Origin: Squalus acanthias
Lineage: Eukaryota
Length of the DNA: 64,000 nucleotides
NCBI GenBank assembly: GCA_030390025.1
Contig: CM059432.1
Span: 81,036,001-81,100,000, forward strand
Reading direction: 5' to 3'
Shown piece by piece: positions 6,327 to 46,425 of the stretch. Position 1 is the stretch's first letter. Every line of letters starts with the position of its first letter. Under the pieces are notes generated by a model. That model was given only the letters and a program-made list of their open reading frames with translations. It did no database searches and was not told the origin of the DNA. Both the position numbers and the translations under genes were made by a program.

Positions 6327-6441
6327 CAAGTATGTAAAAAGGAAGAGAGTAGCAAAAGTAAACGTTGGTCCCTTAGAGGCCAAGACAGGATAAATTATTA
6401 TGGGGAATAAGGAATTGGCAGAAACGTTAAACAAATATTTT

Positions 6442-13345: not shown

Positions 13346-13759
13346 GTAATGACAGAAACTGTCTTCAGTACAGTTCTTCAAACATGTAGAGTATTAACTG
13401 TTCTAGTAATCCTTGAATATCTTTCTTTCCTCAAGAGTAAAGTTTAGTTCACACAGCAGCAGGTCACATTACTATCTTATGGCTTTGTTGTGAAATTAAA
13501 TTATATAAAAGAACACTGGACTAGAAATTCCACACTATCATGAGGCCGAAATCCCGTGTACTGGCAGTGGAGAGACAGGAAATTGAGGCAGAACCCATTT
13601 CTGCTGGGTTTCTACAATTTTTGGCACCCATGTGAACTTCTGATGGAAGGCAGGGGTGAATGTTTCTTCTTTCCGGCCCCTTTTGGGGGTATCTGGCAGG
13701 ATCCTGGGCTCTCCCAGAAATCCTACCAGTTACATCTCCTGCACAACCAGTAAGTACAG

Positions 13760-14620
13760 CTGCATGAAGCAGGCATACCTGATGTATTGGGCTGGCCATT
13801 GAGGCTATTATTGAAGAACTGGAGGGTGTATGCAGGGACATTGGGCTGAAGGAGATCAGCGGTAAGGAGAGGCATTTGAAGGTGATTATAAGAATGATAA
13901 AGTTGATTCTGTGAGATGCAGGAAGCCAGTGGAGCTTGATGAAGGTGGGGTGATAGGAACACTGTCCTTACTGTAGCATTTTACATTACTTTTCGAAGCA
14001 GGGAGGCCAGCAAGGAAAGTACTAGTGATAAAAACATGGATTCACATTTCAGCAGCAGAGGTGAGAGATAGGGGCAGAGGTAGTGACATTGAGGAGTCGA
14101 TGGAAAATGGTCTTGGTGACAGATTGGGTATGGGCCAGAATTTTGGCTCAGGGTAGAGCATTGTGCCAATGTAACACCTCACCGGAGGTGACAGCCAGGG
14201 AGCGGGATGAAGTCGAAGCTAGATATGCATATGCGTTTGTGGAAGTCAAAGAGAATTGTTTCAATTTATCAACATTAACCTGGAGGAAGTTTTGTTTCAT
14301 CCACGTTTTAATGTCAGATAGCCAGTTGGAGATGATATGAAGGCAACAGGTGTGGGGTCGATGAAGGAGGTGATGAAGTAGAGCATATACATGATGGCTG
14401 ACTCTGTACTCCAAGAGATAACATGTAAGTGATGAAGAAGAGGGAGTCAAGAATTACACCAAAGGTGGGCACGGGAGGAGAAACAATTGGAAGTGAAGTA
14501 ATGTGTACAGTGTGACAGATAGAAATAGATTCAGGAGCGAGCAGTGCCACACAGTGGACTGTGGAAGAGAGACATTCGAGGAGTATGGAATGGTCGACAG
14601 TGTTGAACGCAGGCAATGCG
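13760..14620 (-). mobile_element. Old L2-clade LINE RT fragment
   Basis: AFNTVDHSILL and LSDIKTWMKQNFLQVN motifs, heavily frameshifted. Confidence 0.65.
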
Positions 14621-15353
14621 AGATTGCAGCCATAATCATCATTCTCATTTTACTAATTTCAAACGTGTGATTAGTAAAACTGTTTTAACAAACGATGTAT
14701 CTTGCTATTCCTAACTCACCAACTGTATGATAGACTAATTTCACTTCCCTCCATGAACACAACACTACCTTTGCTAATTTACCACAAGAGATCATCATGA
14801 AACAATATTTTTGGTTAGTTATGATGGAAAGGCTCATTTCTTTGAATTCTAGTTTCCGCTGCACTGAGTACCTGCCTTTGTCCTATCTCCATATTGTGGC
14901 AGAGTATAAAGTGTGGCTTCAATTGGCTTGGTGACTTCAGATGGCTGTCAAATTACTCTGAATCATGCTCAAGTCTAGGAAAGCAAAGCCCAGCCATGTG
15001 GAGGAGAAAAGAGGTCACTGGCTATCAATTATGCATGGGAACCCTGGCTTTTTTGCTGCCTAGTCTAACGATGCTGAGGGCAACTTTTATCACTTTTCAC
15101 TCTGGCTAGCTCAAAGCCGAAGGATTGAAGGACCATCCAGGCCTGTATTCTTAGTATCATTCATGGACTATACAGTATTTTTACCTACTGAACCATAAAG
15201 GGAGTGCCATAAGAAGTGCATCACATATAATTAAGCAAGCGTGGCTGCTGCTCATCCATTGCTGCACGTTGGCTGCTTGCTCCAATTGTAACATTTGGAA
15301 TGCTAGAACTTAATATTGAATGAACTGCAGTTGGCCATTTAGACTGGCACGCA

Positions 15354-15964
15354 GGGTTAAATTCTGCTCTGCAGTGGAGAATGAGGGAGAATTTGGGCGC
15401 TGAAGCCTACCGCCGCCTCACTGCCCTGACCTGGACTTCCCTCCCCTTGTTGAGACTGCTGCTGGCTGTTCCTTCCCGCCCACCACGTTCAAAAGGCAGC
15501 AGGGAAACTGATCCAGAGCCCCGGCAGATTATCCTGGCTTCACTTACTGCTGCTTCCCAGGGCAGCCATATGGAAGGTGGCATTGGATTCCGGGAAGGGG
15601 TGGCAACAGTTTGAGATCCCCTAGTGGGGAAGAGGGCCTCCTCTCCATCCAGTCGTGCTCCCACTTACCTTCTTTTATAGGCCTTGATCTCTGCTGAGGC
15701 CTATAAGGCAGGTAACTTTAGAATCTTCAGGGTTCTTCTGTCCCTTTTAAATGCCTGGCCACCTCTTTTGGTGCTGCAGCAGTAGCATTTAAAGGGGCAG
15801 AAATATTTTTGGCCGGCCACTGGCAGGCTCCATCATGGTAGTGGGAATCCCAGCGGAAATCCACCATGCATCTTGATTGACCTCCGACCCCAGAAAATGG
15901 CTTGGGGTTGGGTCAGCTTCAGAGGGATAGGTGGATGTCTCCCCTCCAGAGGAGTAACCAGCCC
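15354..15964. mobile_element. Highly degraded Harbinger-like MITE
   Basis: GC-rich block with GGG...CAGCCC-like ends and internal TTTAAAGGGG motifs; weak support. Confidence 0.35.
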
Positions 15965-16191
15965 ATAAGTTCTGAAAATATCTGATGTAAGGAAGGAATT
16001 TTATAATGACATGTAGCTGGAATATTGAACAGTTTGGGGATACAGTTGGCCCCATAAATAATTTTGCATCAAAATTTCTGAGTATAATAAGCATGTATAA
16101 ATATCCACAGATTACTTATTTAATAAATGGTATATTAGCTTAACCAGCTTCCAGTTCCTTCATGCTGATTTATTGTTTGCTTTTCTTTCAG

Positions 16192-16323
16192 AAAACAAAG
16201 GGACACGGCGAGATTGTAGAGGTTATGATAAACCGTGGCTAACAAATGCCAAAAAACCCAAAAAGTCAAAAAGTGACCTTGCTGTCTCCAACATATCGCC
16301 ACCATCACCAGAATCAAAGTCCT
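16192..16323 (+). CDS. C8orf34: C8orf34 orthologue, coding exon (132 nt)
   Basis: TTTCTTTCAG acceptor, T|GTAAGC donor; (E)[43 protein letters not shown]; phase 1-1 continues the previous exon. Confidence 0.93.
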
Positions 16324-17060
16324 GTAAGCATGTTTTCATTTAATTGCTCTTCTTTTGGATTGTTCATTTAGTTTCAGTTGTTAGTGCTGCAGCTCTTGTG
16401 ACCTGTTGTAATCAAGCCTGATATGTCTATATGTCTGATATTTTGGGATTATTGGAATACTATACAATATTGAAAAATAGACATTTCTTGCTACTGGTTA
16501 TTTAGGGAGGTTCTTCTTTGTCTGGCTGGATTCCAGAACAATTCGATGGTGTGAGCTAGCTTGAAATTACCAATGATGCTGTAGATGATACTGATAGTGA
16601 GCCAATTAGGTTATGTATTAGCTGTCATTCAGACTCAAAATTGAATTATATTGTTGATGTTTGAAAACTAGGGCAAGTGACTTCTAAATAAAGCTTCTGA
16701 AAATATTATTATAACCAGCAGGATGGTGCTTGAGGTAAAAAGAAGACAATTCGCATAGATGAAATAATGTACATAACCCTGTAAATCAGAAGTTAGATTA
16801 TCTTTTAGACAACATTCTCCTCTTAATGCAAATATTTACAAGCTTTATGCAAATACATACAGATAGATAAAACTAATTTGAAATCCCATCTTTCCATTTG
16901 GGACTGATGTTGCTGACCGTGCATTATTCAGTTAAATTAGTTATTGCAATAGTGTTAAGCAAAGTTAAACCTCTATTAATGAGAAAATATGCATAAATGT
17001 CAGTGAGAAGCAATGAGGAAAAGCTGTTGACTGTACTTATATTTTCCTTAATGTTTGCAG

Positions 17061-17189
17061 TACCAAGGTCAATAGAACATGCTGCATGGGACTGGCGAAC
17101 AAAACCAGAAAGCCACAACTTTGATGAACTGAATCACATCCTTCAGGAAAGCAAGAAGTTAGGCAAGGCCCTGGAGAACCTCTCTCGTA
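17061..17189 (+). CDS. C8orf34: C8orf34 orthologue, coding exon (129 nt)
   Basis: TTTGCAG acceptor, A|GTGAGT donor; (L)[42 protein letters not shown]. Confidence 0.93.
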
Positions 17190-23817: not shown

Positions 23818-24357
23818 CTTGGCAGGGGAATTGGAACATGAGCATAGATTCAGAAGGGAGAGAAGCAAAGCTGGAAATGGAAGGCAGAAAATTAGTGAGT
23901 GAGTTTGGAAGGCAGAGGAAACAAAGGCTAGAAAATAGACAACAAAGGGTTTGGGCAGTGTTTAATGGTATATACTTCAATGCAAGGAGTCTAGTGAATA
24001 AGGTAGATGAGCTGAGGGCACAGATAGACATGTGGAAGTATGATAGCATAGCTATTACTGAAACATCCTTAAAGAAGGGCAGGAATGGCAGCTCAACATT
24101 CCTGGCTACTATGTTTCAGACAAGATAGAGAGAGGGATAAAAAGGAGGGGGGTGGGGGGGCGGGGTGTCGCAATATTGGTGAAAGAAACAATTACAGCTG
24201 TGAGGAGGGATGATATGTTAGAAGGATCATCAAATGAGGCCATATACATTGAACTGAAGAACAAAAAAGGGTCAATCACACTGCTGGGAGTGTACTATAG
24301 ACCCCCAAATAGTCAGAGGGAGATACAAGAGTAAATATGTAGGCAAATTTCTGAGAC

Positions 24358-26781
24358 GTGCAGAATAATAGGGCAGTCATAGTGGGGGATTTTAACTATC
24401 ATATTAACTGGACAAATCAAATTGGGCAGGGCAGACTTGATGAAGAGTTTATTGAGTGTCTTAGGGATGGATTTCTTGAGCAGTATGTAACTGATCCTAC
24501 AAGGGGGCAAGCAACCTTGGACCTGGTACTGTGTAATGAGTCTGGATTAATTAATAATGTCCTAATTAAGGATCCCCTTGGAATGAGTGACCATAACATG
24601 GTTGAATTCCATATCCAATTAGAGGGTGAGAAGGTTGGTTCTCAAACAAGCATACTGAGCTTGAATAAAGGAGACTATGATGGCATGAGAGCAGAATTGA
24701 TTAAAGTGGACTGGGAAAATAGATTAAAGGGTAAGACGGTACATGAGCAGTGGTGTTCATTCAAGGAGTTATTTTACAACTTTCAAAATAAATATATTCC
24801 ACTGAGGAAAAAAGGGTGTAAAAGAAATGACAGCCATCCATGGCTAAGTAAAGAAATTAAAGAAAGTATCCAACTAAAAACAAGGACATATAAGGTAGCC
24901 AAAGTTAGTGGGAGGATAGAAGATTGGGAAGTCTTCAAAAGACAACAAAAAGTAACTAAAGGATTGATTAAGAAAGGGAAAATAGACTATGAAAATAAAT
25001 TAGCAAAAAATATAAAAACAGATAGCAAGAGTTTCTATAGTTATATAAAAAGAAAAAGGGTGGTTAAGGCAAACATAGGTCCCTTAGAGGATGAGACCGG
25101 GAAATTAATGGTGGGAAACATGGAGATGGCAAAAATGCTGAACAAATATTTTGTTTCAGTCTTTACGGTAGAGGACACTAAGAATATCCCAACACTGGAC
25201 AAACAGGGGGCTCTAGTGGGGGAGGAGCTAAATACGATTAAAATTACTAAGAAATTGGTACTCAGTAAAATAATGGGACTCAAGGCGGATAAATCCCCTG
25301 GACCTGATGGCTTACATCCTAGGGTCTTGAGAGAAGTGGCAGTAGGAATTGTGGATGCTTTGGTAATAATTTTCCAAAACTCCCTGAACTCAGCAAAGGT
25401 CCCGGCAGATTGGAAAACTGCTAATGTAACACCCTTATTTAAAAAGGGTTGTAGGCAGAAGGCTGGAAATTATAGACCAGTTAGCCTAACATCTGTGGTG
25501 GGTAAAATTTTGGAGTCTATTATTAAGGAGACAGTAACGGAACATTTAGATAAACATAATTTAATAGGACAAAGTCAGCATGGCTTTATGAAGGGGAAGT
25601 CATGTCTGACAAATTTGCTCGAGTTCTTTGAGGACATAACGTACAGGGTGGATAAAGGGGAACCAGTGGATGTAGTGTATTTAGACTTCCAGAAGGCATT
25701 CGACAAGGTGCCACATAAAAGATTATTACTCAAGATAAAAAATCACTGGATTGGGGGTTATATTCTGGCATGGGTGGAGGATTGGTTATCTAACAGGAAG
25801 CAGAGAGTTGGGATAAATGGTTCATTCTCGGACTGGCAACCAGTAGCCAGTGGTGTTCCGCAGGGGTCGGTGCTGGGTCCCCAACTCTTTACAATCTATA
25901 TTAACGATTTGGAGGAGGGGACCGAATGTAACATATCAAAGTTTGCAGATGATACAAAGATGGGAGGGAAAGTAGAGAGTGAGGAGGACATAAAAAACCT
26001 ACAAGGGGATATAGACAGGCTGGGTGAGTGGGCAGAGATTTGGCAGATGCAATACAATATTGGAAAATGTGAGGTTATGCACTTTGGCAGGAAAAATCAG
26101 AGAGCAAGTTATTATCTTAATGGCGAGAAACTGGAAAGTACTGCAGTTCAAAGGGATCTGGGGGTCTTGGTGCAAGGAAATCAAAAAGTTAGTATGCAGG
26201 TGCAGCAGGTGATCAAGAAAGCCAATGGAATGTTGGCTTTTATTGCTAGGGGGATAGATTATAAAAACAGGGAGGCATTGCTGCAGTTGTATAGGGTATT
26301 GGTGAGACCGCACCTGGAGTACTGCATACAGTTTTGGTGTCCATACTTAAGAAAAGACATACTTGCTCTCGAGGCAGTACAAAGAAGGTTCACTCGGTTA
26401 ATTCTGGGGATGAGGGGGTGGACATATGAGGAGAGGTTGAGTAGATTGGTACTCTACTCATTGGAGTTCAGAAGAATGAGAGGCGATCTTATTGAAACAT
26501 ATAAGATTGTGAAGGGGCTTGATCGGGTGGACGCGGTGAGGATGTTCCCAATGATGGGTGAAACTAGAACTAGGGGACATAATCTTAGAATAAGGGGCTC
26601 CTCTTTCAAAACTGAGATGAGGAGAAACTTTTTCACTCAGAGGGTAGTGGGTCTGTGGAATTTGCTACCCCAGGAAGCTGTGGAAGCTACTTCATTAAAT
26701 AAATTTAAAACAGAAATAGACCGTTTCCTAGAAGTAAAGGGAATCAGGGGTTACAGGGAGCGGGCTGGAAATTGGACATGA
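24358..26781 (+). CDS. Uninterrupted partial CR1 ORF2 (APE C-terminal half + complete RT, 807 aa)
   Basis: GDFN, LDLV, SDH, PGPDG, NYRP, QHGF, DFQKAFD, GVPQGSVLGP, FADD; no stops. Belongs to a young 5'-truncated copy ending ~26975. Confidence 0.85.
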   Translation: MQNNRAVIVGDFNYHINWTNQIGQGRLDEEFIECLRDGFLEQYVTDPTRGQATLDLVLCNESGLINNVLIKDPLGMSDHNMVEFHIQLEGEKVGSQTSILSLNKGDYDGMRAELIKVDWENRLKGKTVHEQWCSFKELFYNFQNKYIPLRKKGCKRNDSHPWLSKEIKESIQLKTRTYKVAKVSGRIEDWEVFKRQQKVTKGLIKKGKIDYENKLAKNIKTDSKSFYSYIKRKRVVKANIGPLEDETGKLMVGNMEMAKMLNKYFVSVFTVEDTKNIPTLDKQGALVGEELNTIKITKKLVLSKIMGLKADKSPGPDGLHPRVLREVAVGIVDALVIIFQNSLNSAKVPADWKTANVTPLFKKGCRQKAGNYRPVSLTSVVGKILESIIKETVTEHLDKHNLIGQSQHGFMKGKSCLTNLLEFFEDITYRVDKGEPVDVVYLDFQKAFDKVPHKRLLLKIKNHWIGGYILAWVEDWLSNRKQRVGINGSFSDWQPVASGVPQGSVLGPQLFTIYINDLEEGTECNISKFADDTKMGGKVESEEDIKNLQGDIDRLGEWAEIWQMQYNIGKCEVMHFGRKNQRASYYLNGEKLESTAVQRDLGVLVQGNQKVSMQVQQVIKKANGMLAFIARGIDYKNREALLQLYRVLVRPHLEYCIQFWCPYLRKDILALEAVQRRFTRLILGMRGWTYEERLSRLVLYSLEFRRMRGDLIETYKIVKGLDRVDAVRMFPMMGETRTRGHNLRIRGSSFKTEMRRNFFTQRVVGLWNLLPQEAVEATSLNKFKTEIDRFLEVKGIRGYRERAGNWT

Positions 26782-28277: not shown

Positions 28278-30449
28278 GCTTAAGCTTCTGTCTTCTTTCT
28301 TCATAGCTCAACCCTACTACACTTAGTTGTTTCTCTTCACTGCACATTCTGTTCGACCAGTTTCACTTCACAGGAGAAGCTGGGATAACCCTGCCTCCTA
28401 ATGGTAATGTTCTCTGATATTCAGTGTCAGATTACAAGAACAACAGACAACAGGGGGTCGTAGCAATAGGCACAGGCCCAATGTATTCATGCAAATGAAG
28501 TGGGAGGGAGAATTCCAGTCCTCCTGCTTCAATTTCCTGTCTGTGTGGATCTTGGGTGCTCTAACGCACTGATATCCCTCAAAACTGGCAATGTTGTCTT
28601 TTGCCAGGACCCTCCTCAGGGTGAAGGGTCTAAGGGGGCCTGGTAGCAAGGCCAAGAGAGGCTCAAATATAAGTGGGCCTTGTTTTTGAAGATATAGAAG
28701 GTTTCTGGCTGTTCTCAATCATCATCCAGAGGCCCTATGGATAACAGGCAGATAGGCCTGCTCCTTTTTCCGGCCTGAATTACCAGTGGAAAGTCCTGAT
28801 GGGATGGGCCTGTGCCAGGGGTGTGACCAGGTGCAGCCTAGATAAGTACAGTACACTTTATGCTGTCCAGCGCTGGGTAGATGGGGCCAGGAAAGTTGGC
28901 CCCCAGGTATTTATTGAAACAAAACTGGCAAATACAATGAATTGGAAGGGAATATGCAGTTAATCCAATGGGAGCGGGTTAGATGCATGAGAGCGAACAT
29001 GGGAGGATTAGGGGCATGGAGTGAAGGAACAGTATTGGAGATAGATATATATGTAATATTCCTAGCTGTGGCGACTCAAGGTATCAGTAAAAGCAAAGGT
29101 GTGGAATTGAGTGTGAGAAATGTAGGAAACTGGAGAAAAAGTAGAAGAACTAAAAAGAACAATGCCAATTTGCAAAGAGAAACAGTAAGTGAGAAATAAA
29201 AGAACCAAATAGCAAAGAACAGCCAGGAAAACAAAAAAGCAAAAAGCAAGCAGAGGTGCAGAAGGATGGATATATAACAGGTACTAAATAAGGTCTGATT
29301 TTTATTTTTTAACGATTAAATTAGTGTTACCTTACATGTATGAGTGAGAACACATAATGAAAAGCATAGAAGCAGCACTCCTTTATATACTGGAAGAATA
29401 CTAGAAAATACCCAGGAAAAATTGAACAGAAATAGAGAGGAATAGAGTGTGATTAGCTTGCAGAGTCTGATCAGGATGTACGGGCATTGCTGTTTGCCAC
29501 TAGGGAGGTCCTTCATTTTGTATCACTCATATCAATGACACTGCTTTAGTCAAGCCGCATGCAGAATTCAATTATTGTCCGATTAATACTGAACAGTAGG
29601 TCAAAGTTTTGGTTTCTGTGAATAGGGCAGACAGTGTACATGTTTATGAGCCCTTCACTCAAATTGTGCCTGCAATTTGTCCAGAAAATCATGCCTGTAG
29701 GTTTAAGACTTCTCAAATTCAAATTTGCACATTTTAGAATTTTTTAAAAACACCTCACGGTTTGGACAGTGTTGTCGACATTTGAGTACAAAATTAGTTG
29801 TTTAGAAAATTACGTTGAACATGTTAAAATAATTGAGGTCATATAAGAGGCTGGTGAAGGTTAGATTTTTCAATACCTGCTCAGTCTTGCTTCATAGTTA
29901 TCTCTAGCGATACTTGCTTTTTATATTATAAGCCTAGGAGAAATCATTTTCTTGCAGATATTAAGTTTTGTTATAATTGCAGTCCCAGAACATGTGCTAA
30001 TATATTACCATGTATTTCATAATCAGTTGCTTACTACCTTAAGGATTTTAATAGAAATCAGAATTGTCCTTAATGTTCAAAAAAAATACTAAGGGCCTTT
30101 ATTTGCGGCCCCTACGGGTGTGTACGAGGTTGGTACTTGACAGATCCAATGTATCCCCGGGAAAAGGGCATCCAAGGGTGGAGAGTTGCGTTATTTGCCC
30201 AACTTCTGCCCATCGAATGCCCGTGAAACTCTTCCGCCTGGTAAAAGCAGGCATAAGGTCTGCTTTTACCAGTGTAAGGGGTAAAAATTCAGTTGGTTGC
30301 GCCTCCCGTTAGCGCCTTAAATGGGCGCTAATGGGGCGTTAAGGAGCTAACGCCCGGGCGCAGCGCTGTTTGCGCCGCTCGAGAACTTAACTTCAGATTG
30401 TGCGGCGGCGCTAAAACTTACCGCTGCGACCACCTGCGCGCGCAGATTG

Positions 30450-30594
30450 TGACGTCATTCCGTGGTGCAACGCCCTTGGGGCGCCCCGGAGCGGAAATTG
30501 AGTGGCGCCCCCTGCCTTACCGCCTGGCGCTTCCAACGACCGGAAGACTGGAACGTTATCAATCGGTGTGGGGCTGGGGGGGGCGCTATTTAAA
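30450..30594 (+). promoter_or_regulatory. Putative transposase promoter (CRE + TATA-like)
   Basis: TGACGTCA 30450-30457 and TATTTAAA 30587-30594, then a (GA)n leader; same layout at 44944/45081. Confidence 0.5.
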
Positions 30595-30789
30595 GGGGGC
30601 CTCTTCCTGTCTTTTTCTGTGGTCGACATTTATGCACCACTCGTTCTGAGAGAGAGAGAGAGATTCGGAGAGAGAGAGAGAGAGACTTCTACATTGACTC
30701 AACGCTTTGTGAGGTAGTTTTGCCTAGTTCATCCTAACTTTGCTGCTACTTTCGTTGCTGTACCTCATTACTTTTCTGGCAAAGAGAAG

Positions 30790-31950
30790 ATGGGGGCTGC
30801 AATGATTGGGGGCGTCATCCTGCTCCAGCTCAATCGGAGGAGAGTGAGACGCAGACAGAGAGTGGCAATGATGGCCAGACGGAGGAGGCCCATCAGGCGC
30901 ATGTACAGGAGAGCTTACCCTCCCAGGGTATATCGTGAACAGCTCTCCTACATCCACATGTCCGAGGAGCTGTGTTTGCGAAGGCTGCGATTCAGCAAGG
31001 AGGTGGTCACTGAGCTCTGCCACCTGCTGCAGCCAGATCTGCAGCCTCAGCTGAGGTCCAGGACGTCTCTGTCGGTGGCAGTGAAGGTCACAGTGGCTTT
31101 GAACTTCTACGCCACTGGCTCATTCCAAGCTGCTGTTGGGGACCTCGCCAATATCTCCCAGTTTGCGGTGCATCGCTGCATCCGGCAGGTCACCAATGCC
31201 CTCTTCACAAGGAGACGAGACTTCATCTCCTTCCCTATGACCCCAGACAAGCAGCATGACCGTGCTATGGGCTTTGCGAGGGTAGCGGGCTTCCCCATGG
31301 TGCAGGGCGCCATTGACTGCACGCATGTGGCTTTGCGTGCTCCGCGAGAAAATGCAGAGGAGTTCCGGAACAGAAAGGGGTTCCATTCCTTGAATGTGCA
31401 GTTGGTCTGTGACCACAGACAGGTGATTCTCGCTGTCAATGCCCACTATCCGGGCAGCTGCCACGATGCTTTCATCCTGCGCCAGAGTACTGTGGCAGAA
31501 ATTTTCGAGGCACCGCATCAGCCAGTTGGTTGGCTTCTCGGGGACAAGGGGTACGCATTGAGCACCTGGCTGATGACACCGCTCCGTGCGCCAAACACCC
31601 CTGCTGAGCTGCGGTACCAGGAAAGCCAACAAGCAACGAGGAACATTATTGAGCGCACAATCGGCGTGCTCAAACAACGATTCCGCTGTCTGGACCATTC
31701 CGGAGGAGCCCTGCAGTACTCGCCTGAGCAAGTTTCCAAATTCGTAGTGGTGTGCTGCATGTTGCACAACATGGCAATCCTCAGGACGCAGCCAATGCCA
31801 CCAGGCCTTGCAGCACCACAAGAGGAGGAGGAGGAAGAGGAGGAACAGGCCGAGGACGATGATCAGCAGCAGCACCAAGGCAGGAGGGCGGCCCACAATG
31901 GTCAAACTGCAAGGGCCGTCCGTCAACGACTAATAGCAAGCCGCTTCTAG
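30790..31950 (+). CDS. Harbinger DDE transposase (HARBI1/DDE_Tnp_4-like), intact 386 aa
   Basis: [37 protein letters not shown] and RNIIERTIGVLKQRF carry the D-D-E triad; acidic tail; no stops. Confidence 0.95.
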   Translation: MGAAMIGGVILLQLNRRRVRRRQRVAMMARRRRPIRRMYRRAYPPRVYREQLSYIHMSEELCLRRLRFSKEVVTELCHLLQPDLQPQLRSRTSLSVAVKVTVALNFYATGSFQAAVGDLANISQFAVHRCIRQVTNALFTRRRDFISFPMTPDKQHDRAMGFARVAGFPMVQGAIDCTHVALRAPRENAEEFRNRKGFHSLNVQLVCDHRQVILAVNAHYPGSCHDAFILRQSTVAEIFEAPHQPVGWLLGDKGYALSTWLMTPLRAPNTPAELRYQESQQATRNIIERTIGVLKQRFRCLDHSGGALQYSPEQVSKFVVVCCMLHNMAILRTQPMPPGLAAPQEEEEEEEEQAEDDDQQQHQGRRAAHNGQTARAVRQRLIASRF

Positions 31951-32244
31951 GGCCCCTGCCAGTGCTACAAACACGAATCAACCCAGCACGCAACCCCTAA
32001 GCCGGCCAAGGCACCAATAATTCCAACCACCAGCCATGTATATTTTGAATACAGAAACTTATTTATTGTACAAACTCTGTGTGTGTCAATTCCTCATGAC
32101 AAACTCATAGAAATAAACACAAAAAAACAGTCAATAACATAACTGGTTCTCACAACCTGGAGATAATGTCCAAAACACTAAACAAAAGTTGGGCCATGAA
32201 CCTCGGCCTTTAATAAAAAAATGACCAGCATTTTGGCACACCTC

Positions 32245-33312
32245 CTACTTTTTGCCCTTCGAGGGTGATCTCCTTCCCTTGCGCACTTCCCCCCTTCTAA
32301 CCCTACTGCTCCTCCGTAATGGGACCTCAGTGGCTGCAGCAAGGCTGGTGGAAGGCTGCTGCTTGTCAGACCCTGACACTGCAGATGCCCCTGAAGGACG
32401 GCCTCGACCACTTCTGGGCCTGGAGGGCCCGGCTGCAGACTGCACCAACTCTGCATGGGCGGCAGCAGTCTGTCCTACAGGCGGTGGCAAGTGCAGTGGA
32501 GAAGTGACAGTGTTGGCAGCAGGAATGCTGTCATTGTGAGAGAGGACAGCAACTCCCTGCTCGCCCGACACACTGGCACTCCCACGGGGCAGCACTTCAG
32601 CATCCGGAGCAATTTGCCGGAGAACAGATTGCTGGCCTGCTGCGGCGCGGTGACAGCCCCGGGGACATGTGCACGAACCATCGAGGATGGCAGCAGTCAG
32701 TGCTCGCGTGGCCTCAATCTGAGTCTGCATGAGAGCAGGCTCAGATGGGTTCCTGGCAGCCAGTGACTGAATTGCAGCAGTAAGCTTTAGTGTGGCATCC
32801 GCCTGTGCTACAGCGAAGTGCTCCACACTCCTTGCCAGTGCCTCAATGCATTCGGGCACCCTTCCCACTGCACCCATGAGCTCAGTGTGCATGACCACCG
32901 CCTGGCTGTTCATTTCTGCAATCAGCCGCTCCTCCTCTGCGTCCATTGCATTAGGAGTGTCTGGCATACTCTCCCTCTGGGGAGAAGGCTCCCGTTCTTC
33001 CCTCCCCCCCCCCATGGCGTTGCTGCAGCCCGCTGGGTCCTGGAACTTCACCATCATCAGCCCCTTCCCCCCTGCTCCCCCGTTCTTCCCTCCCCCCCCC
33101 ATGGCGTTGCTGCAGCCCGCTGGGTCCTGGAACTTCACCATCATCAGCCCCTTCCCCCCTGCTCCCCTCCGGGGAAGGCGTGTTCCCAGTGTGGCCATGG
33201 GCTTCCTCGGGAGAGGGTGGCACTGATGCTCCGGCTTCCTCTTCCTCCTCAGCTGCAGCATCACTCCCAGTGGCAGCTTCAGGGACCATCTCCTCAGCTG
33301 GTGAATCACCAT
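32245..33312 (-). CDS. Harbinger Myb/SANT-like gene exon 3 (acidic, helical/coiled-coil-like, basic NLS-like end); one +1 frameshift
   Basis: TTTCAG acceptor at 33313. Phase-1 frame DGDSPAEEMVPE... joins REPSPQRESM...RRSPSKGKK* if the C10 run at 33004-33013 is read as C9. Confidence 0.8.
   Translation of the reverse strand: MVIHQLRRWSLKLPLGVMLQLRRKRKPEHQCHPLPRKPMATLGTRLPRRGAGGKGLMMVKFQDPAGCSNAMGGGGKNGGAGGKGLMMVKFQDPAGCSNAMGGGREEREPSPQRESMPDTPNAMDAEEERLIAEMNSQAVVMHTELMGAVGRVPECIEALARSVEHFAVAQADATLKLTAAIQSLAARNPSEPALMQTQIEATRALTAAILDGSCTCPRGCHRAAAGQQSVLRQIAPDAEVLPRGSASVSGEQGVAVLSHNDSIPAANTVTSPLHLPPPVGQTAAAHAELVQSAAGPSRPRSGRGRPSGASAVSGSDKQQPSTSLAAATEVPLRRSSRVRRGEVRKGRRSPSKGKK
32991..33167. repeat. 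87/88-bp direct tandem duplication in Myb exon 3
   Basis: Two copies of GSRGEGADDGEVPGPSGLQQRHGGG; the homopolymer is C9 in one copy and C10 in the other. Confidence 0.95.
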
Positions 33313-33471
33313 CTGAAAGCAGGGAGGTACAAGAGTGGCTTTAGCGTGAGGACAGGGTGGCAGTAAGGGAGGAATAAGTGCAGCGAGTTAGCAAGTTGGA
33401 TTGAAAGTGTCAAAGGCTGGTATTGTGAGGGACAAGTGGAAGGACAGAGGACAAAAAGGTGATGACCTTAC

Positions 33472-33634
33472 CATTGCTGTCCACAACGGGGTCGGCGTCT
33501 CCAGTGGCGACGGGACCGATCACCCGGCTTGCCACAATCCTGTGGACGCGCTCCTCCAGATCGCTGAGGGGTTGCAGCTGAAGCCGCCCTCCACCCGTCC
33601 GTTGCTGCTGTCTCCGATTATGAGCCAGCTTAGC
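33472..33634 (-). CDS. Harbinger Myb/SANT-like gene exon 2 (163 nt)
   Basis: TTCTTGCAG acceptor, G|GTAAGG donor; AKLAHNRRQQQRTGGG...DPVVDSN. Confidence 0.88.
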
Positions 33635-33668
33635 CTGCAAGAAAAAGGACAGCATCTGAGTCAATATA

Positions 33669-33830
33669 CAGCCATGGTCTTGCCTGATGTGCCTCCCATA
33701 GGTGAATAGCCCTTACTGTATGCAGCCATGGTCTTGCCTGATGTGCCTCCCATAGGTGAATAGCCCTTACTGTATGCAGCCATGGTCTTGCCTGATGTGC
33801 CTCCCATAGGTGAATAGCCCTTACTGTATG
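33669..33830. repeat. Perfect 54-bp tandem repeat x3 in Myb intron 1
   Basis: CAGCCATGGTCTTGCCTGATGTGCCTCCCATAGGTGAATAGCCCTTACTGTATG at 33669, 33723, 33777. Confidence 0.97.
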
Positions 33831-33972
33831 CAAAGTGTGGAATGTGTGTGTGTGTTTGATGAAAGGGCCATAGGTGTTGCATGAGTGTTGTGCATTGGGG
33901 TTTTAAGACCCTCTGGCCATAGAGTGAGGTTGAGATGGAGGGATGGAGAGGTATTGAGAAAAAGCCACTCAC

Positions 33973-34209
33973 CCTGTCGACCCGAGTGAGGTCGTTGAAC
34001 TTTTTGCGGCACTGGACATGGGTCCTGGGCACCATGCTCCTGGAGGAGACGCTCTGAGCCACCTCCCTCCACACTCTTCTGAACTCGCGTGGCAAAGGCC
34101 TCCTGCCACTCTCCGGGAACAGCATGCATCGTCTGCGCTCCACTGCATCAACCAGAGCATCCAAGGCCCGCTCGGTGAAGCGATGAGCGCGTTCTCTCAC
34201 CCTCTCCAT
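33973..34209 (-). CDS. Harbinger Myb/SANT-like gene exon 1 (trihelix DNA-binding domain, NAIF1/MSANTD-like)
   Basis: MERVRERAHRFTERALDALVDAV...VWREVAQSV...RTHVQCRKKFNDLTRVDR|gtgagt; 237 nt, phase 0. Confidence 0.9.
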
Positions 34210-36567
34210 GCTTGGCAGCAAAATGGATTACAGGTCTCTCCAGGCTGAGATTCAAGGCTGCAATGAGCAGGGTGTGGCTGGGGAGCAAGTGGCCCCCCCC
34301 GCTTTAAGAAGTGTCCGGCGCCAGTGTGTCTGTGTTCCCTCGCTAACTGGCAGCAGCTGCGCTGCGCTCGTGCGCTGAGTTAGCGCCTCACTCCTAGGCC
34401 TTTGCGCCTTAAGAGAGGTGTGCAGCGCCTAATTTAGCGCTCCACTCACCTCCCGGGGCGGTAAAAGTGAAGTTTCCTGTCAGTGCCGATAATTAGCGCC
34501 AGGCGCTAATATTTGCGCGCGGACGATATTTGCGCCCCAAATGGGGCGCGACCTAATTTCTACCCCTAAGAGTTTAAAAAAACATAAAACTAAATTTTTT
34601 TCAATCATTTATACATTAAAAAACCTGTACAATAAGGTAAGGTTATTTTTAGCCCCTTTAAAACATTTAAATTTATTTAAAAAAAATTTTTTTTGTTTTA
34701 AGTATTTAATTAAATGGCATTATAATTAATTAACAATATGTAATGGTTTTTTAAAATTTATTTGATGTGTAGATGTATTTTTTTGGGTATTCCCATTCAT
34801 ACTTATGGCGTTTCCGTACATACGGAATTCCCATAAGCATGAATGGGGATTCCCTTCTTTCATTCGTTGGGCCAGCCCATGTCATCCCAGGGGCGCTCGC
34901 GAACCGCCTGCGCCCCTGTGGTACTTGGGCCTATACCCGCGGGTACCCAGAGAGGCCCAGGACAGCGAATCTCCGTACCTCCTTGACCACCAGGTACGCG
35001 GGCATTTTATTTGCGGATCGGAGGCATTTCCCCGCGGGAAGCCTCCGACCACAAATTCAGGGCATTAATGTCAAATTAATGTCAAGATCAACAGGACTGT
35101 CATCATCTATTTGCTTTGCAGGGATACCGTTACTGTTTTCATCATATAACAACTTACTTGTAACCCCAAGCATGGAGACCTGGTAGCAGCTTCTGAAAAA
35201 TTTATCTCATATTTTAGATTCATCCTTTTTACTTCACTCAGGCTTGTTTAAGAGCTGTATTTCTGAACCTTGCCAGCTGACATTATAGATAATTCAGTCA
35301 GACCCTTTTCATTTGGTTGAATTTATCTCTGCTCTGCACCTGCCATGTGACTTCTGTTCTATTGCTGAGTGTTTCATACTGTGAGATGCAGTTCAGTGTT
35401 CACATTTTATGATATTTGTGATATCTCCGGCAGAAATGAGTGAAGATGTTCAGTGCTTAAATACAGAGGAAATCACAATCCTAAGGATTTAAAGCCCTGC
35501 CATGGTCATCAATGTTAAAATCTGAAGCTGCATTGTTTTTTTGTCTGAATCAGACTCTGAACATGAGCTCTTACTGAAAACCAGGTCATGTAATTAGGGA
35601 CCAATCTTTTGTAGGTTTGTAATAAACAAAAAGGAATTAACGAAAATAAAACACCATGACAACATGTAACAACTAGTGTGAAAATGATAACTAGTTTGAA
35701 ATGTGGGTACAAACATTTTATTAATTAAAAAAAATAGGTTATTGCAGTCAGTATAACGTTAGTTGACAATCTGGGTTTCAGCTTTGACAGAAAAACAAAC
35801 GATTCGCAGATTGTGATCTCAAAACACTAGTAGAAATCCTGAAATCCAATGTACTATAAAGGATTTTTTAAATTTATTCAGATGCCTTGAAGCAATGGCC
35901 ATGGTTAAAATCCTTTATTTAGAAATATTATTATTTTTTTTGTTGCCAGCTTCTTTTGGTCTGTCAGCTTTTTTCACGTGATTCTTCAGCTTTTCGGTGT
36001 TTTGTAGGTTGGCATGTATGATGACAGTGTCCCATTCCGTCTTCTCTCCCTCACTATAGGTAACTCTCCCTCACTATAGGTAAGCACCTCCTACCTTCCC
36101 TACAGACCAAGTTGGGATCAGTAATTCATTGTGTGAGAAATTGAATAATGGTTGATTCTTAAAAATAAAAGCGAGATGATAGTCCCGATTTTGTTATCTG
36201 TCATGCCCTAATTTTAAATGCATATGAATTATAATGAACCAGGAAAGAGGGCAGAAATCACTCCTGCTCTTCCGGGCCCCACTATGGAAAGTATTTTTTA
36301 ACTTGCCTTGGAGGATCTCGCTGGTTTCCCAACAGGTCCACTGGCGGGGCGGGGTTAGAATGTCATCTGAGTCCCGTGCACATCATGGGATCCCGATCTG
36401 TATTTATTAATGAGGCTCTGGCTCCAGAGTCTGGCGGGAACGTTGCCGCCGCTAAAACCAGCAGCGCTAAAGTCACAGATTGGTGGGATTGGAGCGGGAA
36501 ATTAAGCCGCTTCATTTTAACTGGTTCCCTGCTCCTTTCCCACTGATTGGGGAGAGTTAAAATCAAT

Positions 36568-37430
36568 GTCTGCTTCTCCAAGGAAACAGTGAAAGACCTG
36601 TGTCACCTGCTACAGGATGACTTGCAGCCAACCTCCAGTACAAGCACGGAACTACCTGTTGCAGTAAACGTTACTGCAGCTCTGAATATTTTTTGCATGT
36701 GGCTACATCCAGGCTGTCACAAAGGCATCAGTAATATTAACTAATCTGCAGTCCCCACAAGCATCAAGCAGGTGATTCATGCCTCCTTTGCAAACGCTAA
36801 CACCTACATCACTTTCCCCATTGACATCCAAAAAGAACAGGAGAGGGCCCTGGGTTTTTGCAGATTGCAGGATCCAGAGTGACCCAGACTGTGTACATGT
36901 TGCCCTGAACACAATACAGTAACCTTCATGAGTCACAAGGAATTCCACTTCATCGATGTGCAGCTGGTCTGCAACCATCTGCACAGGACCATGCTGGTCA
37001 CTGACCATGCTCGAGGCAGCTGCCATATTGCTTTCATCTGAATGCCAATCATCCAATCCCCCATTATTTGACATAGGACAAGAAATGCGAAGTTTTTCCC
37101 TTAGAGACCAGGCTACTCATTGCAGATCTGGTTTATAACATCTATGTACCATCCACATACAGCTACTGAACAGAGGAACAGCGAGGTCCATGCTTTTATG
37201 AAAGCTGTTATTGAGCACATGGCAGGAATCTTAAAATAGTGATTCTGATTCCTTGACAGGTCTGGGTTTCCTCTAATACAGTCTAGCTCGAATGTCATGT
37301 ATCATTGTGTTTCGGTGAATGCTGCATAACAAGCACTCCACTTGGAGCTCCCAGGGGAGGAGGCCTATGGGGATGCTGAGAAGGTTGCTGTGGAGCAACA
37401 ATTGCCAGCTGCTAGATCCTTGGGGCTTCA
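36568..37430 (+). pseudogene. Old degraded Harbinger transposase
   Basis: FSKETVKDLCHLLQDDLQP...PVAVNVTAALN plus remnants of DCVHV, VQLVC and IEH..GILK; many stops. Confidence 0.75.
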
Positions 37431-37436
37431 TTTAAT

Positions 37437-37557
37437 TAAAAGAAAAGAAAGAAAGACTTGCATATATATAGCGCCTTTCACGACCACCTGATGTCTCAAA
37501 GCGCTTTACAGCCAATGAAGTACTTTTTGAAGTGGAGTCACTGTTGTAATGTGGGAA
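37437..37557 (-). mobile_element. 3' tail of Deu-SINE (or its partner LINE)
   Basis: Near-identical to 12561-12670. Confidence 0.75.
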
Positions 37558-37682
37558 ATTACTGATTATTAATTCCATAGCTGTCCTAATACACCTGCCA
37601 GCCACCTTCTGCAGCACCTGCATATTTGCATCCTTCAAACCACAGCAACAATGACTCCACTACTGCCAAATGGACCATTCAT

Positions 37683-38677
37683 TTCACCTAGCTTTTATTG
37701 ATTTGTGTATATGGACACCTAAATTCTTTTGCTCCTCCATAGCTCCTAGTCTCACACCATTAAGAAAATATTCCGATTTATCTTTCTTGCATTCATTACA
37801 TTTTCCTGCATTGAACTCTATCTGGCATAGTTTTGCCACTTCACTTAGTCTGCCTATGTCCCTTTGAAACTTTCTGCTCCCATCCACACAACTTACTGTC
37901 CCTTCTAACTGAGTGTCATCTGAAAACTTAGAACTCTCTGGGGGCTAAATTCGGTTGATTTGCGCCTCCCGTTAGTGCCCTAAGAGGGTGCAAATCAGCT
38001 AGCGCCTGGACACGACGCCGCTAACACCTCCCGCGAAATTCAGCGGGAGGTAGCGCCGCCGGCAATGGCGTCATCGCCGTGCGCAGTGCCCCACTCGCGC
38101 CCCGGCTGCAATATTGGGTGGTGCCCCCCCGGCTTACTGCTGGGCGCTATGTCCGCCAGGGTCAGGGGGGCCTACCTGCGGCTAGGGGTGGCGCTAGTTA
38201 AAGAGGAGGTGGCGGGCAGCCATTTTTGTTGCCGGCCGCCTGCCAGCACCTGCCCCCATTGCTGCCCCCGGCCCCCGTGAAGCTCCCCCGCGGAGTGCCG
38301 GCTGCTCTCCGTGAGCCCGGCACTCCTCTTGAGTGCTGGGCTCGTTTGCCGGCACTCCCGATCCTTGGTGGCCCAGCTGGGCGCCGGGACGTGCTGCGCC
38401 AGGCCACTCCCCTTTAATAAGAGGAGGAAGGCCTGGAGTACTGCGGCACGTAGCGCTGCGATATTGGCTCGCAGCGCCCCCAAGAGGGACGTGAGGCGTT
38501 TCCAGTAGCTCCCCTCCTCCCTCTCGGGGCGCTACCTGGGAAAATCGGCCGCGGGGGCACTAACTTCTTCGGGGCGCTAAAATTAGGGGGCGCTACCCAA
38601 TTTTTACCCCTCTATTCCTTCATCAAAGTCAGTAAAATAAATGGTGAAAAGCTGAGGCCACAGTACAGATCTCTGGG
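37683..38677 (-). mobile_element. Old CR1 fragment split by a MITE
   Basis: QRDIGRL...FNAGKC...YFLNG...LGVHIH on minus; continues after 38611. Confidence 0.65.
37940..38610 (-). mobile_element. GC-rich Harbinger MITE (family B-like)
   Basis: TIRs GGGGGCTAAATT / AATTTTTACCCC, TCT TSD; inverted relative to 58413. Confidence 0.85.
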
Positions 38678-40172: not shown

Positions 40173-40938
40173 AAGTAACATTCGCGCCATACAAGTGCCA
40201 AGCAACGACTGTCTCCAACAAGTGAGAATCTAACCACCACCCCTTGACCTTCAATGGCATTACCATCACCGAAACCCCTACCATCAACATCCTGGGAGTC
40301 ACTATTGACCAGAAACTTAACTGGACCAGCCACATAAATACTGTGACTACAAGAGCAGGTCAGAGGCTGGGTATTCTGCGGCAAGTGTCTCACCTCCTGA
40401 CTCCCTAAAGCCTTTCCACCATCTACAAGGTCCAAGTCAGGAGTGTAATGGAATACTCTCCACTTGCCTGGATGAGTGCAGCTCCAACAACACTCAAGAA
40501 GCTTGACACCATCCAGTACAAAGCAGCCTGCTTGATTGGCACCCCATCCACCACCGGCGTTCCGTGGCTGCAGTGTGCACCATCTACAAATGCACTGCAG
40601 CAACTCGCCAAGGCTTCTTCGACAGCACTTCCCAAACCCACAAACTCTACTACCTAGAAGGACAAGGGCAGCAGGCGCATGGGAACACCACCACCTCCAA
40701 GTTCCCCTTCAAGTCACACACCATCCTGACTTGGAAATATATCGCCATTCCTTCATAGTCACTTGTTCAAAATCCTGGAACACCCTCCCTAACAGCACTG
40801 TGGGAGTACCTTCAACACGCAGATTGCAGTGGTTCAAGAAGCCGGCTCACCACCACCTTCTCAAGGGCAATTAGGGATGGGCAATAAATGCTGGCCTTGC
40901 CAGCGACGTCCACATCCCAGGAACAAATAAAATAAAAA
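40170..40938 (+). mobile_element. 3' end of second LINE family (same as 5414-6326)
   Basis: RSVMEYSPLAWMSAAPTTLKKLDTIQ and an A-rich tail. Confidence 0.85.
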
Positions 40939-40984
40939 CTGGAGGGCTCCTTCCGAGCGGTTATGGCAGCGGAACCATTGATTT

Positions 40985-42229
40985 AGCACCCCGATGGTCA
41001 ACTCAATGATGTTCCTCGTGGCAGCATGGCTGTTATTATATGAGTGCTGGCCATGAGTGGTGGGGAGCCATCAGCCAGGTGTATAGCGGATAGCCCTTAT
41101 CTCCGAGCAGCCACCCTCGGGTTCAACATGGTGGCTGGAAGATTGCTGGCACACCGGACTGGCGCAGGGTGAAGGCATCACGACTGCTGCCGGGTTACTA
41201 GGTATTCACCATCATGATGCGCTGGTCTTGGTCGCACAACAACTGCACATTAAGTGAGTGGTAGCCTTTGCGATTGCGATACATCTCAGGATTGGTATGC
41301 GGCGCCCGCAAAGCTACGTGTGTGGCGCCCTGCACCATGGGGAAGCCTGATCTCCTGGCAAAGAGAGAAGACAATGAAGTCCCTTCTCCTGGAGTACAAA
41401 CCTCTGTGACCTCCTGGATGCAGCGATGGATGGCAAACTGGGAGATGTTAGCTATGTCTCCTGCTCCTCACTGGAAGGATCCGGTGGCAATAAAATTGAG
41501 GGCAACGGTAGCCTTGAGGGCCACTAGGAGATCCGTCATCGGCCTGCTCTGAGGCTGCAGGTCTGATTGCAGGAGGTGGCAGAGTTCTGTAACCACCTCC
41601 TTGGTGAAGTGGAGCCTCCTAATACATGGCTCATGGCTTAGGTGTAAATAGGAGAGGTGCTCTGGAAGACCCTAGGTGGGTAAGGCCTCCTGCTGAGACC
41701 CCTCCTGCCCCTCCTCCCTCTGCGAGCATCTTGTCCTCTTCTTCGCTGCCTCCGTTCCATCTCCCTGTCATACTCGAGTGCGAGGGATCTGCAAGTAGCG
41801 CCACCATGACTGGGAGTAAGTGGTCTGAGCAGAACCCTTTAAATGAGAAGCAAGGCGTTCTCCACTTGCAGCAACACTCCCTGTCACCTCAGCACTTTTA
41901 AAGTACTCTAGAAAGCTCCAAACGGTTGCACAAACCACAGAGCCAGTACAAATCAAAAAGCAAGTCAGCTGCAAGTTGTACTGTTGATGATACTTTAAAT
42001 AGTGCTGCTGGGGGTCCTTCCTGCTGTTGAAAGCATGGTCAGCAGGTCGTGATTAGAGGGCGTTAAATGGAGCGCGACGTCGAAAATGGCAGATCATGCG
42101 TCAAATCAGCGTTGCACACTCATTGATGTCATGATCTGCCTCATCTACATATCTGCAGAAGCAAAGGAGCCATTTTTTCTTTCAAACTGTCCTGAACGTC
42201 CAGCGCTAAAGGCTCCAATTTCGCGGCCG
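40985..42229 (-). mobile_element. Decayed Harbinger: transposase 5' two-thirds plus one terminus
   Basis: Minus: RRLHFTKEVVTELCHLLQ, VALNFIATGSFQ, NRKGYHSLNVQLLCD, LLGDKGY; terminus CCAATTTCGCGGCC ~42228. Confidence 0.8.
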
Positions 42230-44770: not shown

Positions 44771-45662
44771 GGGGGAAAAATTTGCTTGCTTTGCACCTCC
44801 CGTTAGCGCTCTAAGAGGGCGCTAATGGGGCGCAAAGCAACTAGCGTCCGGGCGCGGCGATGTTTGTGGCGCTCGCGAAATTGACCAGACATTTTGCGGC
44901 GGCGCTAAACACTACCACCACGATCTCCTGCCCCCGCAGACCGTGACGTCAGTCGAGCGTGCAACACCCCAGTAGCGCCCCGGACCGGATATTGAGTGGC
45001 ACCCCCTGCCTTACCGCCTGCCGCTAACAATGACAGGTTGAGGGGAGCGTTTTGCAGTCATGAAGGGACTGGGGGAGCGCTATTTAAAGGCGGCTGCTTC
45101 CTGCCTTTTTTTGTTGCCGATATTTTTGCACCACGCATTCTGAGAGAGAGAGAGAGACTTCTGGAGAGATTCAACGCTACGTGAAGGAGTTTTGGGTACT
45201 GAGCAGCACTTCGCAGGTTCATTTTGACTTGACCTTCCTTGCATTGATTTAGAAGAGACTGTGGGGGCTGCACTCTGAGCTCTTTCCCTGGATCTCTCCA
45301 TTGTTCTTTCCAGCAGATTTGATGTACAGGTCTCTCCAGGCTGAGATTCAAGGCTGCAATGAGCAGGGTGTAGATGGAGAGCAAGATCGACCCTCCCCTT
45401 TAAGAACTGGCCGGCGCCAGTGTGTCTGTGTTCCATTGCTGACTGACATCACATGAGCTTCGCCAGCGCTCTGAGGTAGCGCCTAGCTCCTTGGCGTTAG
45501 CGCCTTAAGAGAGGTGTGTAGCACCTGATTTAGCGCTCCAATCACCTCCAGGGGCGATAGAAGCCAAGTTTGCAGTCGGAGCCAATAATTAGCGCCAGGC
45601 GCTAAACTTTGCGCCCGGCCGATAATTGCGCCCCAAACGGGGCGATACCGAATTTCTCCCCC
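44771..45662 (+). mobile_element. Internal-deletion derivative of the 30278-type Harbinger
   Basis: TIRs GGGGGAAAAATT / AATTTCTCCCCC, TTT TSD; colinear with 30278-30801 and 34184-34566. Confidence 0.9.
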
Positions 45663-46425
45663 TTTCTATTTGACATAGGTTTGGTATTGTCCCAAATTTC
45701 TGACATGCAGTATTTTGCCCCCATAATTTCACAGTCATAAAGTTTGCAGTGGTCTCTGTTATAATTTGAGTTCTCTCTAGATACATTTGATGCATGCTTC
45801 ATGTAAAAGTCAATTTCCATATGCTTCCTATGAACCAAATTTGACCTTGTGTGCGAAGTATCCAGGACAGTAGCCCCCCGAGGAATGAATCCTCTTGCCA
45901 ATGACTGATAAGAGTAAATACCAGAGTAACTGATCACTAGTTTAGACTAAAACTACTAAATTATGGCCTAGAAATTCAAAGTGTTTGCGCTGGTCTATAA
46001 GGTCTGTTCCAGCAAAAAAAATGGCGGCTGCCTCACTTCTGCCCACCTCTGCCACGGGACAGCGCAGCTGACATTTTGGTAAGGGCCATAGCCGCTGGCC
46101 CCTAAAATGTAAATGAGCAGAGTGTGACGTGCACGCCAACTTGACGCCACATCTACAAACTTCGACCTTTCATTCTGTTTAATGCTGGGTACTAAGCACA
46201 GTCAGAAAAGCATGTGTGAAGCAGCCCTGCACAGACGCTGTCAGCAGTTCTTAAAGGAACACGCACATCTTTCAGGTAAGTTTAGATTTAAGCTTTTGGA
46301 CTTTTAAAAATATTTTATTGAAGTAATGACTTGATGCAATAGATGTTAAAAGTTTTTAAAGTGTGCAGGGAGTGCTGTTGGATGCTTGCAAGGCTTCAGA
46401 TGGTAAAGGAAGGCCTCTGAGAAGA

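Follow-up and report, generated by a model that had tools for sequence, protein, structure and literature searches.

The window, a 64,000-nucleotide stretch of Squalus acanthias contig CM059432.1, contains a genuine full-length PIF/Harbinger transposon, an element of the cut-and-paste type, at 30278-34566 (Table 1). It is flanked by a target-site duplication (TSD) of 3 bp and of the TWA type, TAA on both sides, and bounded by 12-bp terminal inverted repeats (TIRs) that agree in 11 of 12 bases. Within it, a transposase gene (DDE_Tnp_4, E 5e-38) converges with a second gene, which encodes a Myb/SANT-like domain (Myb_DNA-bind_5, E 2.6e-9) and whose exons are homologous to P0243, a Myb-like protein of the sawshark Pristiophorus japonicus. 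The Harbinger identity, TIRs and perfect TAA duplication proposed in a sequence-only reading of this DNA are all borne out, the TIRs being short and imperfect.

Table 1. Features of the element and its surroundings, in window coordinates
Feature	Positions	Strand	Remarks
Three coding exons, host C8orf34 homologue	13207-17189	+	13207-13345, 16192-16323, 17061-17189; upstream of element
Older host repeat, left part	30093-30274		Outer limit approximate; 72% to 50982-51133
TSD, left, TAA	30275-30277		Single TAA in empty paralogue
TIR, left, 12 bp	30278-30289	+	11/12 bases match right end
Left subterminal region and transposase leader	30290-30789	+	78% like left end of derivative at 44771
Open transposase gene, 386 aa	30790-31950	+	Pfam DDE_Tnp_4 E 5e-38
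3' region common to both convergent genes	31951-32244		AATAAA at 32112, 32212 (+) and 32062-32067 (-)
Myb exon 3	32245-33312	-	Conserved reading to 32245; premature stop of spliced frame at 32953-32951
Tandem duplication in exon 3, 88/87 bp, with frameshift	32991-33165	-	G runs: 10 (33004-33013), 9 (33092-33100)
Myb intron 2, 159 nt, GT-AG, phase 1	33313-33471	-	Splice-site reading
Myb exon 2, 163 nt	33472-33634	-	Splice scan; homology to P0243
Myb intron 1, 338 nt, GT-AG, phase 0	33635-33972	-	54-bp unit, 3.1 copies, at 33665-33832
Myb exon 1, 79 codons, Myb/SANT-like domain	33973-34209	-	Pfam Myb_DNA-bind_5 E 2.6e-9
Right subterminal region and Myb leader	34210-34554	-	82% like right end of derivative at 45276-45663
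TIR, right, 12 bp	34555-34566	-	Paired with left end
TSD, right, TAA	34567-34569		TAA copy matching left side
Older host repeat, right part	34570-35063		Outer limit approximate; 74% to 51121-51478

The chance of such ends plus a TSD at one given position pair is about 3e-8. We rejected the mismatch between the two TIRs as a sign of decay, because an older derivative at 44771-45662 has the identical asymmetry, which makes it a family trait. Across the 64 kb of the window there are nine Harbinger-type termini. Four TAGCGC-type motifs occur in the left subterminal region and four in the right. The promoter-like motifs that had been pointed out are present, their promoter role being putative: a CRE-like octamer at 30450 and a TATA-like motif at 30587 in the left leader, which also has a candidate 5' UTR intron at about 30714-30784, and a TATA-like motif near 34303 in the right leader.

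When the element was excised in silico, its flanks aligned without a break to a paralogous repeat at 50982-51478 (510 columns, 73%, E 7e-77), which has one TAA at the junction position. The element is thus nested in an older repeat. Among the joints listed, no exact empty-site joint or empty allele was found, the near misses resembling paralogues of the host repeat; X7 contigs matched 196 unique flank bases exactly and recovered no junction. As to the proposed location in a shark intron, the C8orf34 exons upstream are evident, but the intron itself is deduced, as no C8orf34 exon was found downstream of the element within the window. The element is probably located in a long C8orf34 intron, after these three exons.

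The transposase frame is uninterrupted, as had been claimed, and the acidic residues agree with the homologues: D176, D226, D252 and E288 are each the commonest residue among 120 sequences. Ahead of the catalytic glutamate, glutamine stands at the conserved positions N277 and H280, which are kept by 91% and 82%, respectively, of the homologues with a letter there. The fold is predicted with confidence (pLDDT 89.7), and a fold search with the model gave weak matches to DDE transposases and integrases alone (best E 6e-3); a sequence search against solved structures gave no match. Of the 18 transposase variants among the 40 of 158 rows listed, 11 were synonymous, against 23% expected (P 7e-4). 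At 2% divergence, and counting substitutions only, chance by itself would leave such a frame open in about 45% of cases. Changes of the D78V and P34A type are near-private to this copy. A complex prediction of the transposase (residues 1-335) with a C-terminal piece of the Myb-like protein returned a score of 0.00 and no verdict on their association.

The Myb-like gene had been described as a convergent three-exon gene with canonical splice sites and compatible phases. Its layout, GT-AG introns and phases 0 and 1 are confirmed, and exon 2 is the top-scoring candidate exon within the window in a rough splice scan, but the gene is not intact as assembled, the main lesion having escaped the earlier reading: the spliced frame ends after 253 residues and leaves a conserved C-terminus of about 250 residues in another frame, extending to 32245. 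In P0243, a single open reading frame of 554 residues with the same domain order as the element, counterparts of the Myb domain, of exon 2 and of this C-terminus follow one another without a break; aligned to the element, the protein changes frame from -3 to -1 at the tandem duplication. In a long family contig (X17 record 22), 91 bases are missing at 33004-33096, which gives an open frame of 459 codons; joints skipping 89-95 bases at the duplication also occur in X1 contigs. Since P0243 is continuous and the long contig lacks these 91 bases, the normal form of the gene is in frame. A programmed frameshift common to the family was rejected, as the long family contig reads in frame here.

Homopolymers are common sites of assembly error. 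With nine Gs in place of ten, the Myb frame would be open over 489 codons (488 residues), and a run at 33004 shorter by one base was found in three X1 contigs and one X7 contig; neither these nor any other contig could be assigned to the locus at that position. The frameshift of the assembled gene may stem from an assembly error of a single base in the G run; in its assembled form the copy does not have the two intact reading frames of an autonomous element. In X15, a putative RNA run, no splice joint was seen among the 15 of 38 joints listed, and its pieces continue through intron 2 and past the donor site of exon 1; this speaks neither for nor against expression.

The nearest sequences are proteins annotated as 'putative nuclease HARBI1' and Myb-like proteins, which come from Pristiophorus japonicus and from further sharks and rays; P0001 (65%) is the nearest to the transposase. 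The tree places the transposase in a clade, supported at 99/99, that comprises 32 rows from sharks and rays. The protein collection contained no identical or near-identical transposase (best 65-66%), so the element represents a separate family. A scan of metagenome and viral contigs found no relatives of the transposase.

The family is very abundant. Summed X1 contig depth, which is not a copy number, reached 3e5-1.3e6 over the element but 7-8.6 over its unique flanks, and 10,296 of 41,000 short X1 contigs, too short for copy counting, were at least 99% alike. Over seven long X17 pieces of the element (short or unlisted pieces left out), 50 of 2524 bases differed (2.0%). This divergence may greatly overstate the age of the copy, because just 5 of the 39 element positions listed are near-private, in that at least 94% of X1 depth reads otherwise. 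With the divergence of about 2% from long family contigs, the few near-private substitutions in the rows listed and the nesting in an older repeat, the proposed recent insertion is supported as one of relative youth.

Little CpG decay had been adduced as well. It holds for the ends, where the observed/expected ratio is 1.02 and 0.80, but not for the transposase (0.58) and Myb exon 3 (0.38), the window as a whole having 0.42. We rejected CpG content as a clock, since the derivative, at 78-82% likeness, still has 0.80; it cannot date the copy.

X17, a run labelled as another organism, covers the element at even, low depth and has zero depth on the unique flanks. As traces of shark DNA, or the DNA of a relative, would account for this pattern, we make no claim of horizontal transfer. 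About one third of the sequence words occur in runs labelled as other organisms.

Taken as a whole, the locus is quite probably a Harbinger that inserted at a TAA within an older repeat, likely in a C8orf34 intron, and whose Myb-like gene is frameshifted as assembled, leaving a copy that is likely non-autonomous. The earlier description as near-intact and possibly active is not supported for this copy, given the frameshift in the assembled sequence and the deviations of the transposase at N277 and H280; the copy is likely an ordinary young member of a family rather than an intact active element. The Myb-like protein of Harbingers is described as binding the element ends and taking the transposase into the nucleus, both proteins being required (PMC2836001, PMC9392472). 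The copy is likely unable to move itself, because its Myb helper gene is, as assembled, broken by duplication and frameshift. In the course of events we envisage, the G run of exon 3, six Gs long in the single long contig spanning it, would have lengthened, and the unit would then have been duplicated, one of its G runs gaining a base. With the frameshift, the conserved stretch of about 250 residues would be lost, and with it a basic tail resembling a nuclear-import signal. The ends appear intact, so that the proteins of another copy could probably mobilize this one. Expansion of the family likely proceeded through several competent lineages and would be geologically recent.

Three other readings were weighed. 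If the tenth G were an assembly error and the duplication of 29 Myb residues harmless, both proteins could be functional and the copy autonomous. The lesion is indeed a single homopolymer base, and its removal leaves an open frame of 489 codons; the transposase is open with a confidently predicted fold, near-private substitutions are few, and contigs with the shorter run exist. However, these contigs are not assignable to this locus, the long family contig spans the site without the duplication, and the copy has both the near-private D78V-type and P34A-type changes and the glutamines at N277 and H280. We consider autonomy unlikely. Still less likely is a continuing role for the frameshifted gene, either as a 253-residue end-binding protein without the C-terminus, which would dampen transposition, or through slippage on the G run, which would yield some full-length protein. 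Exons 1 and 2 and their splice sites are intact, and the mRNA, with its stop in the final exon, would be likely to escape decay; against this, the in-frame long contig argues that the shift is no programme common to the family.

We give hardly any credence to a domesticated gene like HARBI1, in which the insertion would be old and fixed and selection for the host would maintain the transposase. The frame is open and several shark and ray relatives do group in the tree into cross-species clades that evolve slowly, but the transposase is in none of these, its best cross-species identity is 65%, and ends, TSD and partner gene are retained in a very abundant family that is about 98% alike. Genes of the domesticated type (HARBI1, NAIF1, MSANTD) are single-copy, lack ends and TSD and are conserved across species, none of which was found here. 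HARBI1, NAIF1 and MSANTD1-4 derive from the same two Harbinger genes; as described in PMC9392472, they are single syntenic host genes, whereas the element is repeated and has its ends and TSD.

The non-autonomous transposon that we favour agrees with the PIF/Harbinger group of the PHIS superfamily, as characterized in PMC4482050, in its TWA TSD, its two reading frames (DDE transposase and Myb/SANT), the G at the first position of its ends and its length, which is near the mean of about 4.1 kb reported there. As assembled, it falls outside the definition of a potentially active element given there, which is based on two intact reading frames. Harbinger3_DR of zebrafish, reconstructed, active in human cells and developed into a gene-transfer system (Sinzelle et al. 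2008, cited in PMC2836001, PMC3016246, PMC9392472), is likewise a two-protein vertebrate Harbinger, and going by its description the mechanism is likely alike; its reported target consensus is centred on CWG, whereas the element lies at TAA between flanks without that palindrome. Harbinger-Snek of sea kraits (PMC8437027) resembles the family in its large recent expansion in a vertebrate and in the coexistence of full-length, single-ORF and short non-autonomous forms. It differs in having 269 intact copies in one species and in the horizontal transfer proposed for it, whereas the transposase studied here belongs to a clade of cartilaginous fish.

The exceptional standing assumed for such an element is a weak premise in view of the hundreds of intact vertebrate Harbingers described from a sea krait (PMC8437027) and the zebrafish reconstruction (PMC3016246, PMC2836001); young Harbingers are already on record from sea kraits, newt and coelacanth. 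For cartilaginous fish, the superfamily is named in passing in two shark genome papers (PMC8455134, PMC12498223), is unmentioned in the main text of a Greenland shark preprint, and was absent from elephant shark in a 2022 survey, which called for a study of other cartilaginous fish (PMC9179366). We found no family-level description of a shark Harbinger in the literature searched; subscription papers, Repbase, Dfam or supplements could contain one.

By itself the copy carries little weight: it is young, probably disabled and belongs to a known superfamily. The family is of modest value, given the sparse Harbinger records from cartilaginous fish. It is conceivable, if rather doubtful, that the copy marks a Harbinger family, very large and young, that belongs to a single shark lineage and still moves today from naturally intact copies. 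It would then be a natural two-protein vertebrate Harbinger that needs no reconstruction, and its intact copies, if they still move, would offer natural protein pairs for the study of a mechanism without a close solved structure. In a genome that evolves slowly and is dominated by LINEs, such DNA-transposon activity would be unusual.

The limits of the element are fixed without recourse to its terminal inverted repeats (TIRs), since both flanks match a paralogue (50982–51478) of the older host repeat that encloses it, with one TAA between them. When the element was removed by script and the flanks were joined, the alignment ran over the junction (510 columns, 73% identity). The TIRs and the TAA target-site duplication of the sequence-only reading are borne out: 11 of the 12 terminal bases match and TAA stands at either end. 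TAGCGC-type motifs, candidate binding sites, occur four times in each end and nowhere in the 3.4-kb middle. The host repeat also carries a hairpin-capable 34-bp inverted repeat (82%) at 34785–34854.

Coordinates of the element, its genes and related features in the window
Feature	Position	Strand	Remarks
Element, full span	30278–34566		4289 bp
Transposase ORF	30790–31950	+	386 aa; DDE_Tnp_4, E 5e-38
Myb exon 1	34209–33973	-	Myb_DNA-bind_5
Myb exon 2	33634–33472	-	
Myb exon 3	starts at 33312	-	
C8orf34 homologue, exons (DUF5586)	13207–13345, 16192–16323, 17061–17189		together residues 23–156
Derivative	44771–45662		892 bp; non-coding; arose by deletion from a related Harbinger; ends 78–82% like the element

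The three exons of a C8orf34 homologue lie upstream, and the product of the third is identical to shark proteins. For the other ∼450 residues the window has no match at E values up to 1, so the element is probably located in a C8orf34 intron of more than 46 kb, where its transposase shares the strand of the host gene. Of the intronic location proposed earlier, the exons are thus found and the intron itself is probable. In three gene models, P0124 and P0244 (both sawshark) and P0253, Harbinger-like sequence is fused to domains from the host (C8orf34, a PML-like TRIM, an Ig protein); intronic copies probably misled the annotation in these cases.

The window contains nine termini of Harbinger type, together with several fragments of decayed transposase and Myb genes. 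Decayed copies or termini are found at 3790–10768, 36574–38610, 40936–41794, 58413–59054 and 61115–63973, some of them interrupted by LINE fragments. The derivative has the same left/right TIR asymmetry as the element and is flanked on both sides by TTT, not TWA. An 808-aa ORF at 24355–26781 was called by eye from its translation as a LINE-type reverse transcriptase.

The transposase frame is uninterrupted, as had been claimed, and has the acidic residues D176, D226, D252 and E288. Its predicted model is confident (pLDDT 89.7), and a fold search with it gave only weak matches (best E 6e-3), for the most part to DDE transposases and integrases. In sequence searches, 357 proteins reached E 1e-30 or better. 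Most of the 120 listed belong to sharks and rays, and the best match among them has 65% identity. A tree was built from the window protein and 37 of these 120, hand-picked from the longer and better hits and leaving out the decayed copies in the window; it places the protein in a 32-row clade of sharks and rays (support 99/99), without a close partner. At 94 columns at least 80% of homologues agree, and the window protein departs from them at three (N277Q, H280Q, E359Q); the first two sit on the helix that leads to E288. Harbinger transposases of distant sharks and rays also form several short-branched shared clades (P0004/P0005, P0009/P0012, P0019/P0023/P0063, P0039/P0040, P0008/P0020/P0028), which look like domesticated genes of cartilaginous fish. 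The 5′ leader of the transposase contains a candidate short intron (30714–30784), with a GT donor, a pyrimidine tract and an AG right before the ATG.

The exon layout agrees with the proposed convergent three-exon Myb/SANT gene, both introns being GT–AG, in phases 0 and 1. The claim of a near-intact element is not supported for this copy as assembled, however: the protein from the spliced frame stops at 253 aa, and exon 3 contains a tandem duplication with units of 88 and 87 bp and G runs of 10 and 9. Downstream, another frame is open for ∼250 codons, as far as 32245, and this region is conserved, the C-terminal part matching a decayed copy at 8872–9442 and 11 proteins in the representative protein library. 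Two of these, P0252 and the sawshark protein P0243, also have the Myb domain in a single ORF; P0243 carries a single copy of the duplicated motif and switches frame relative to the element at the duplication. A 704-base contig from X17, a sequencing run labelled as another organism, omits 91 bases there, leaving an open frame of 459 codons. The frame switch and this contig indicate a normal gene of ∼458 aa, broken in this copy as assembled. Since removing a single base from the longer G run gives a protein of 488 aa, it is also possible that the tenth G is an assembly error.

Contigs of four sequencing runs were aligned to the window. On unique flanks, run X1 gave single long contigs at a depth of 7–8.6, with differences at 2 of 829 and 0 of 566 bases, and therefore comes from the same species or a very near one. 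Its summed depth on the element (3e5–1.3e6) is not a copy number, and we take from it only that the family is very abundant. Seven long element pieces from X17 together show 50 differences from the window in 2524 bases (2.0%). The differences between family copies include many transversions (60 of 90 places in X17), whereas transitions of the CpG type would be expected in methylated vertebrate repeats. Among the 40 of 158 variant rows listed (39 inside the element, one in the host repeat), most differences are common to part of the family, so the copy may be younger than 2% implies; at 5 of the 39 element positions, at least 94% of X1 depth reads otherwise. Low CpG decay, previously taken as a sign of youth, is no clock for this copy. 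In the listed rows, a selected subset, 11 of 18 transposase variants are synonymous where 23% would be expected (P 7e-4), which suggests that they arose in competent lineages under selection. An open transposase frame at 2% divergence has a 45% chance of occurring anyway and so does not require selection. The joints listed included no splice joint or empty allele, blanks that carry no evidential weight.

The element shows all four features that define PIF/Harbinger (PMC4482050) but, as assembled, lacks the two intact ORFs. Young vertebrate Harbingers are already known: published accounts describe 269 intact copies in one sea krait species (PMC8437027), a recent burst in newt (PMC5741667) and, in a review, ongoing accumulation in coelacanth (PMC5381603). 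The superfamily is also mentioned for whale shark and grey reef shark (PMC8455134, PMC12498223), and a reconstructed zebrafish Harbinger is reported to function in vertebrate cells (PMC3016246). A search of the literature library found no description of this shark family.

The element is a real young Harbinger copy of a very abundant shark family, which upholds the recent insertion claimed for it; its helper gene is frameshifted as assembled, which weakens the accompanying suggestion of activity, and we consider it rather unlikely that the family is still active via naturally intact copies. Two reports (PMC2836001, PMC9392472) describe Harbinger transposition as dependent on both proteins: the Myb-like partner attaches to the ends and brings the transposase into the nucleus, and excision is as a rule precise. 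Through the frameshift, the helper protein would lose its helical middle and its basic tail, the latter a putative nuclear-import signal by its composition. Given this and the two-protein requirement, the copy is likely non-autonomous, yet mobilisable in trans.
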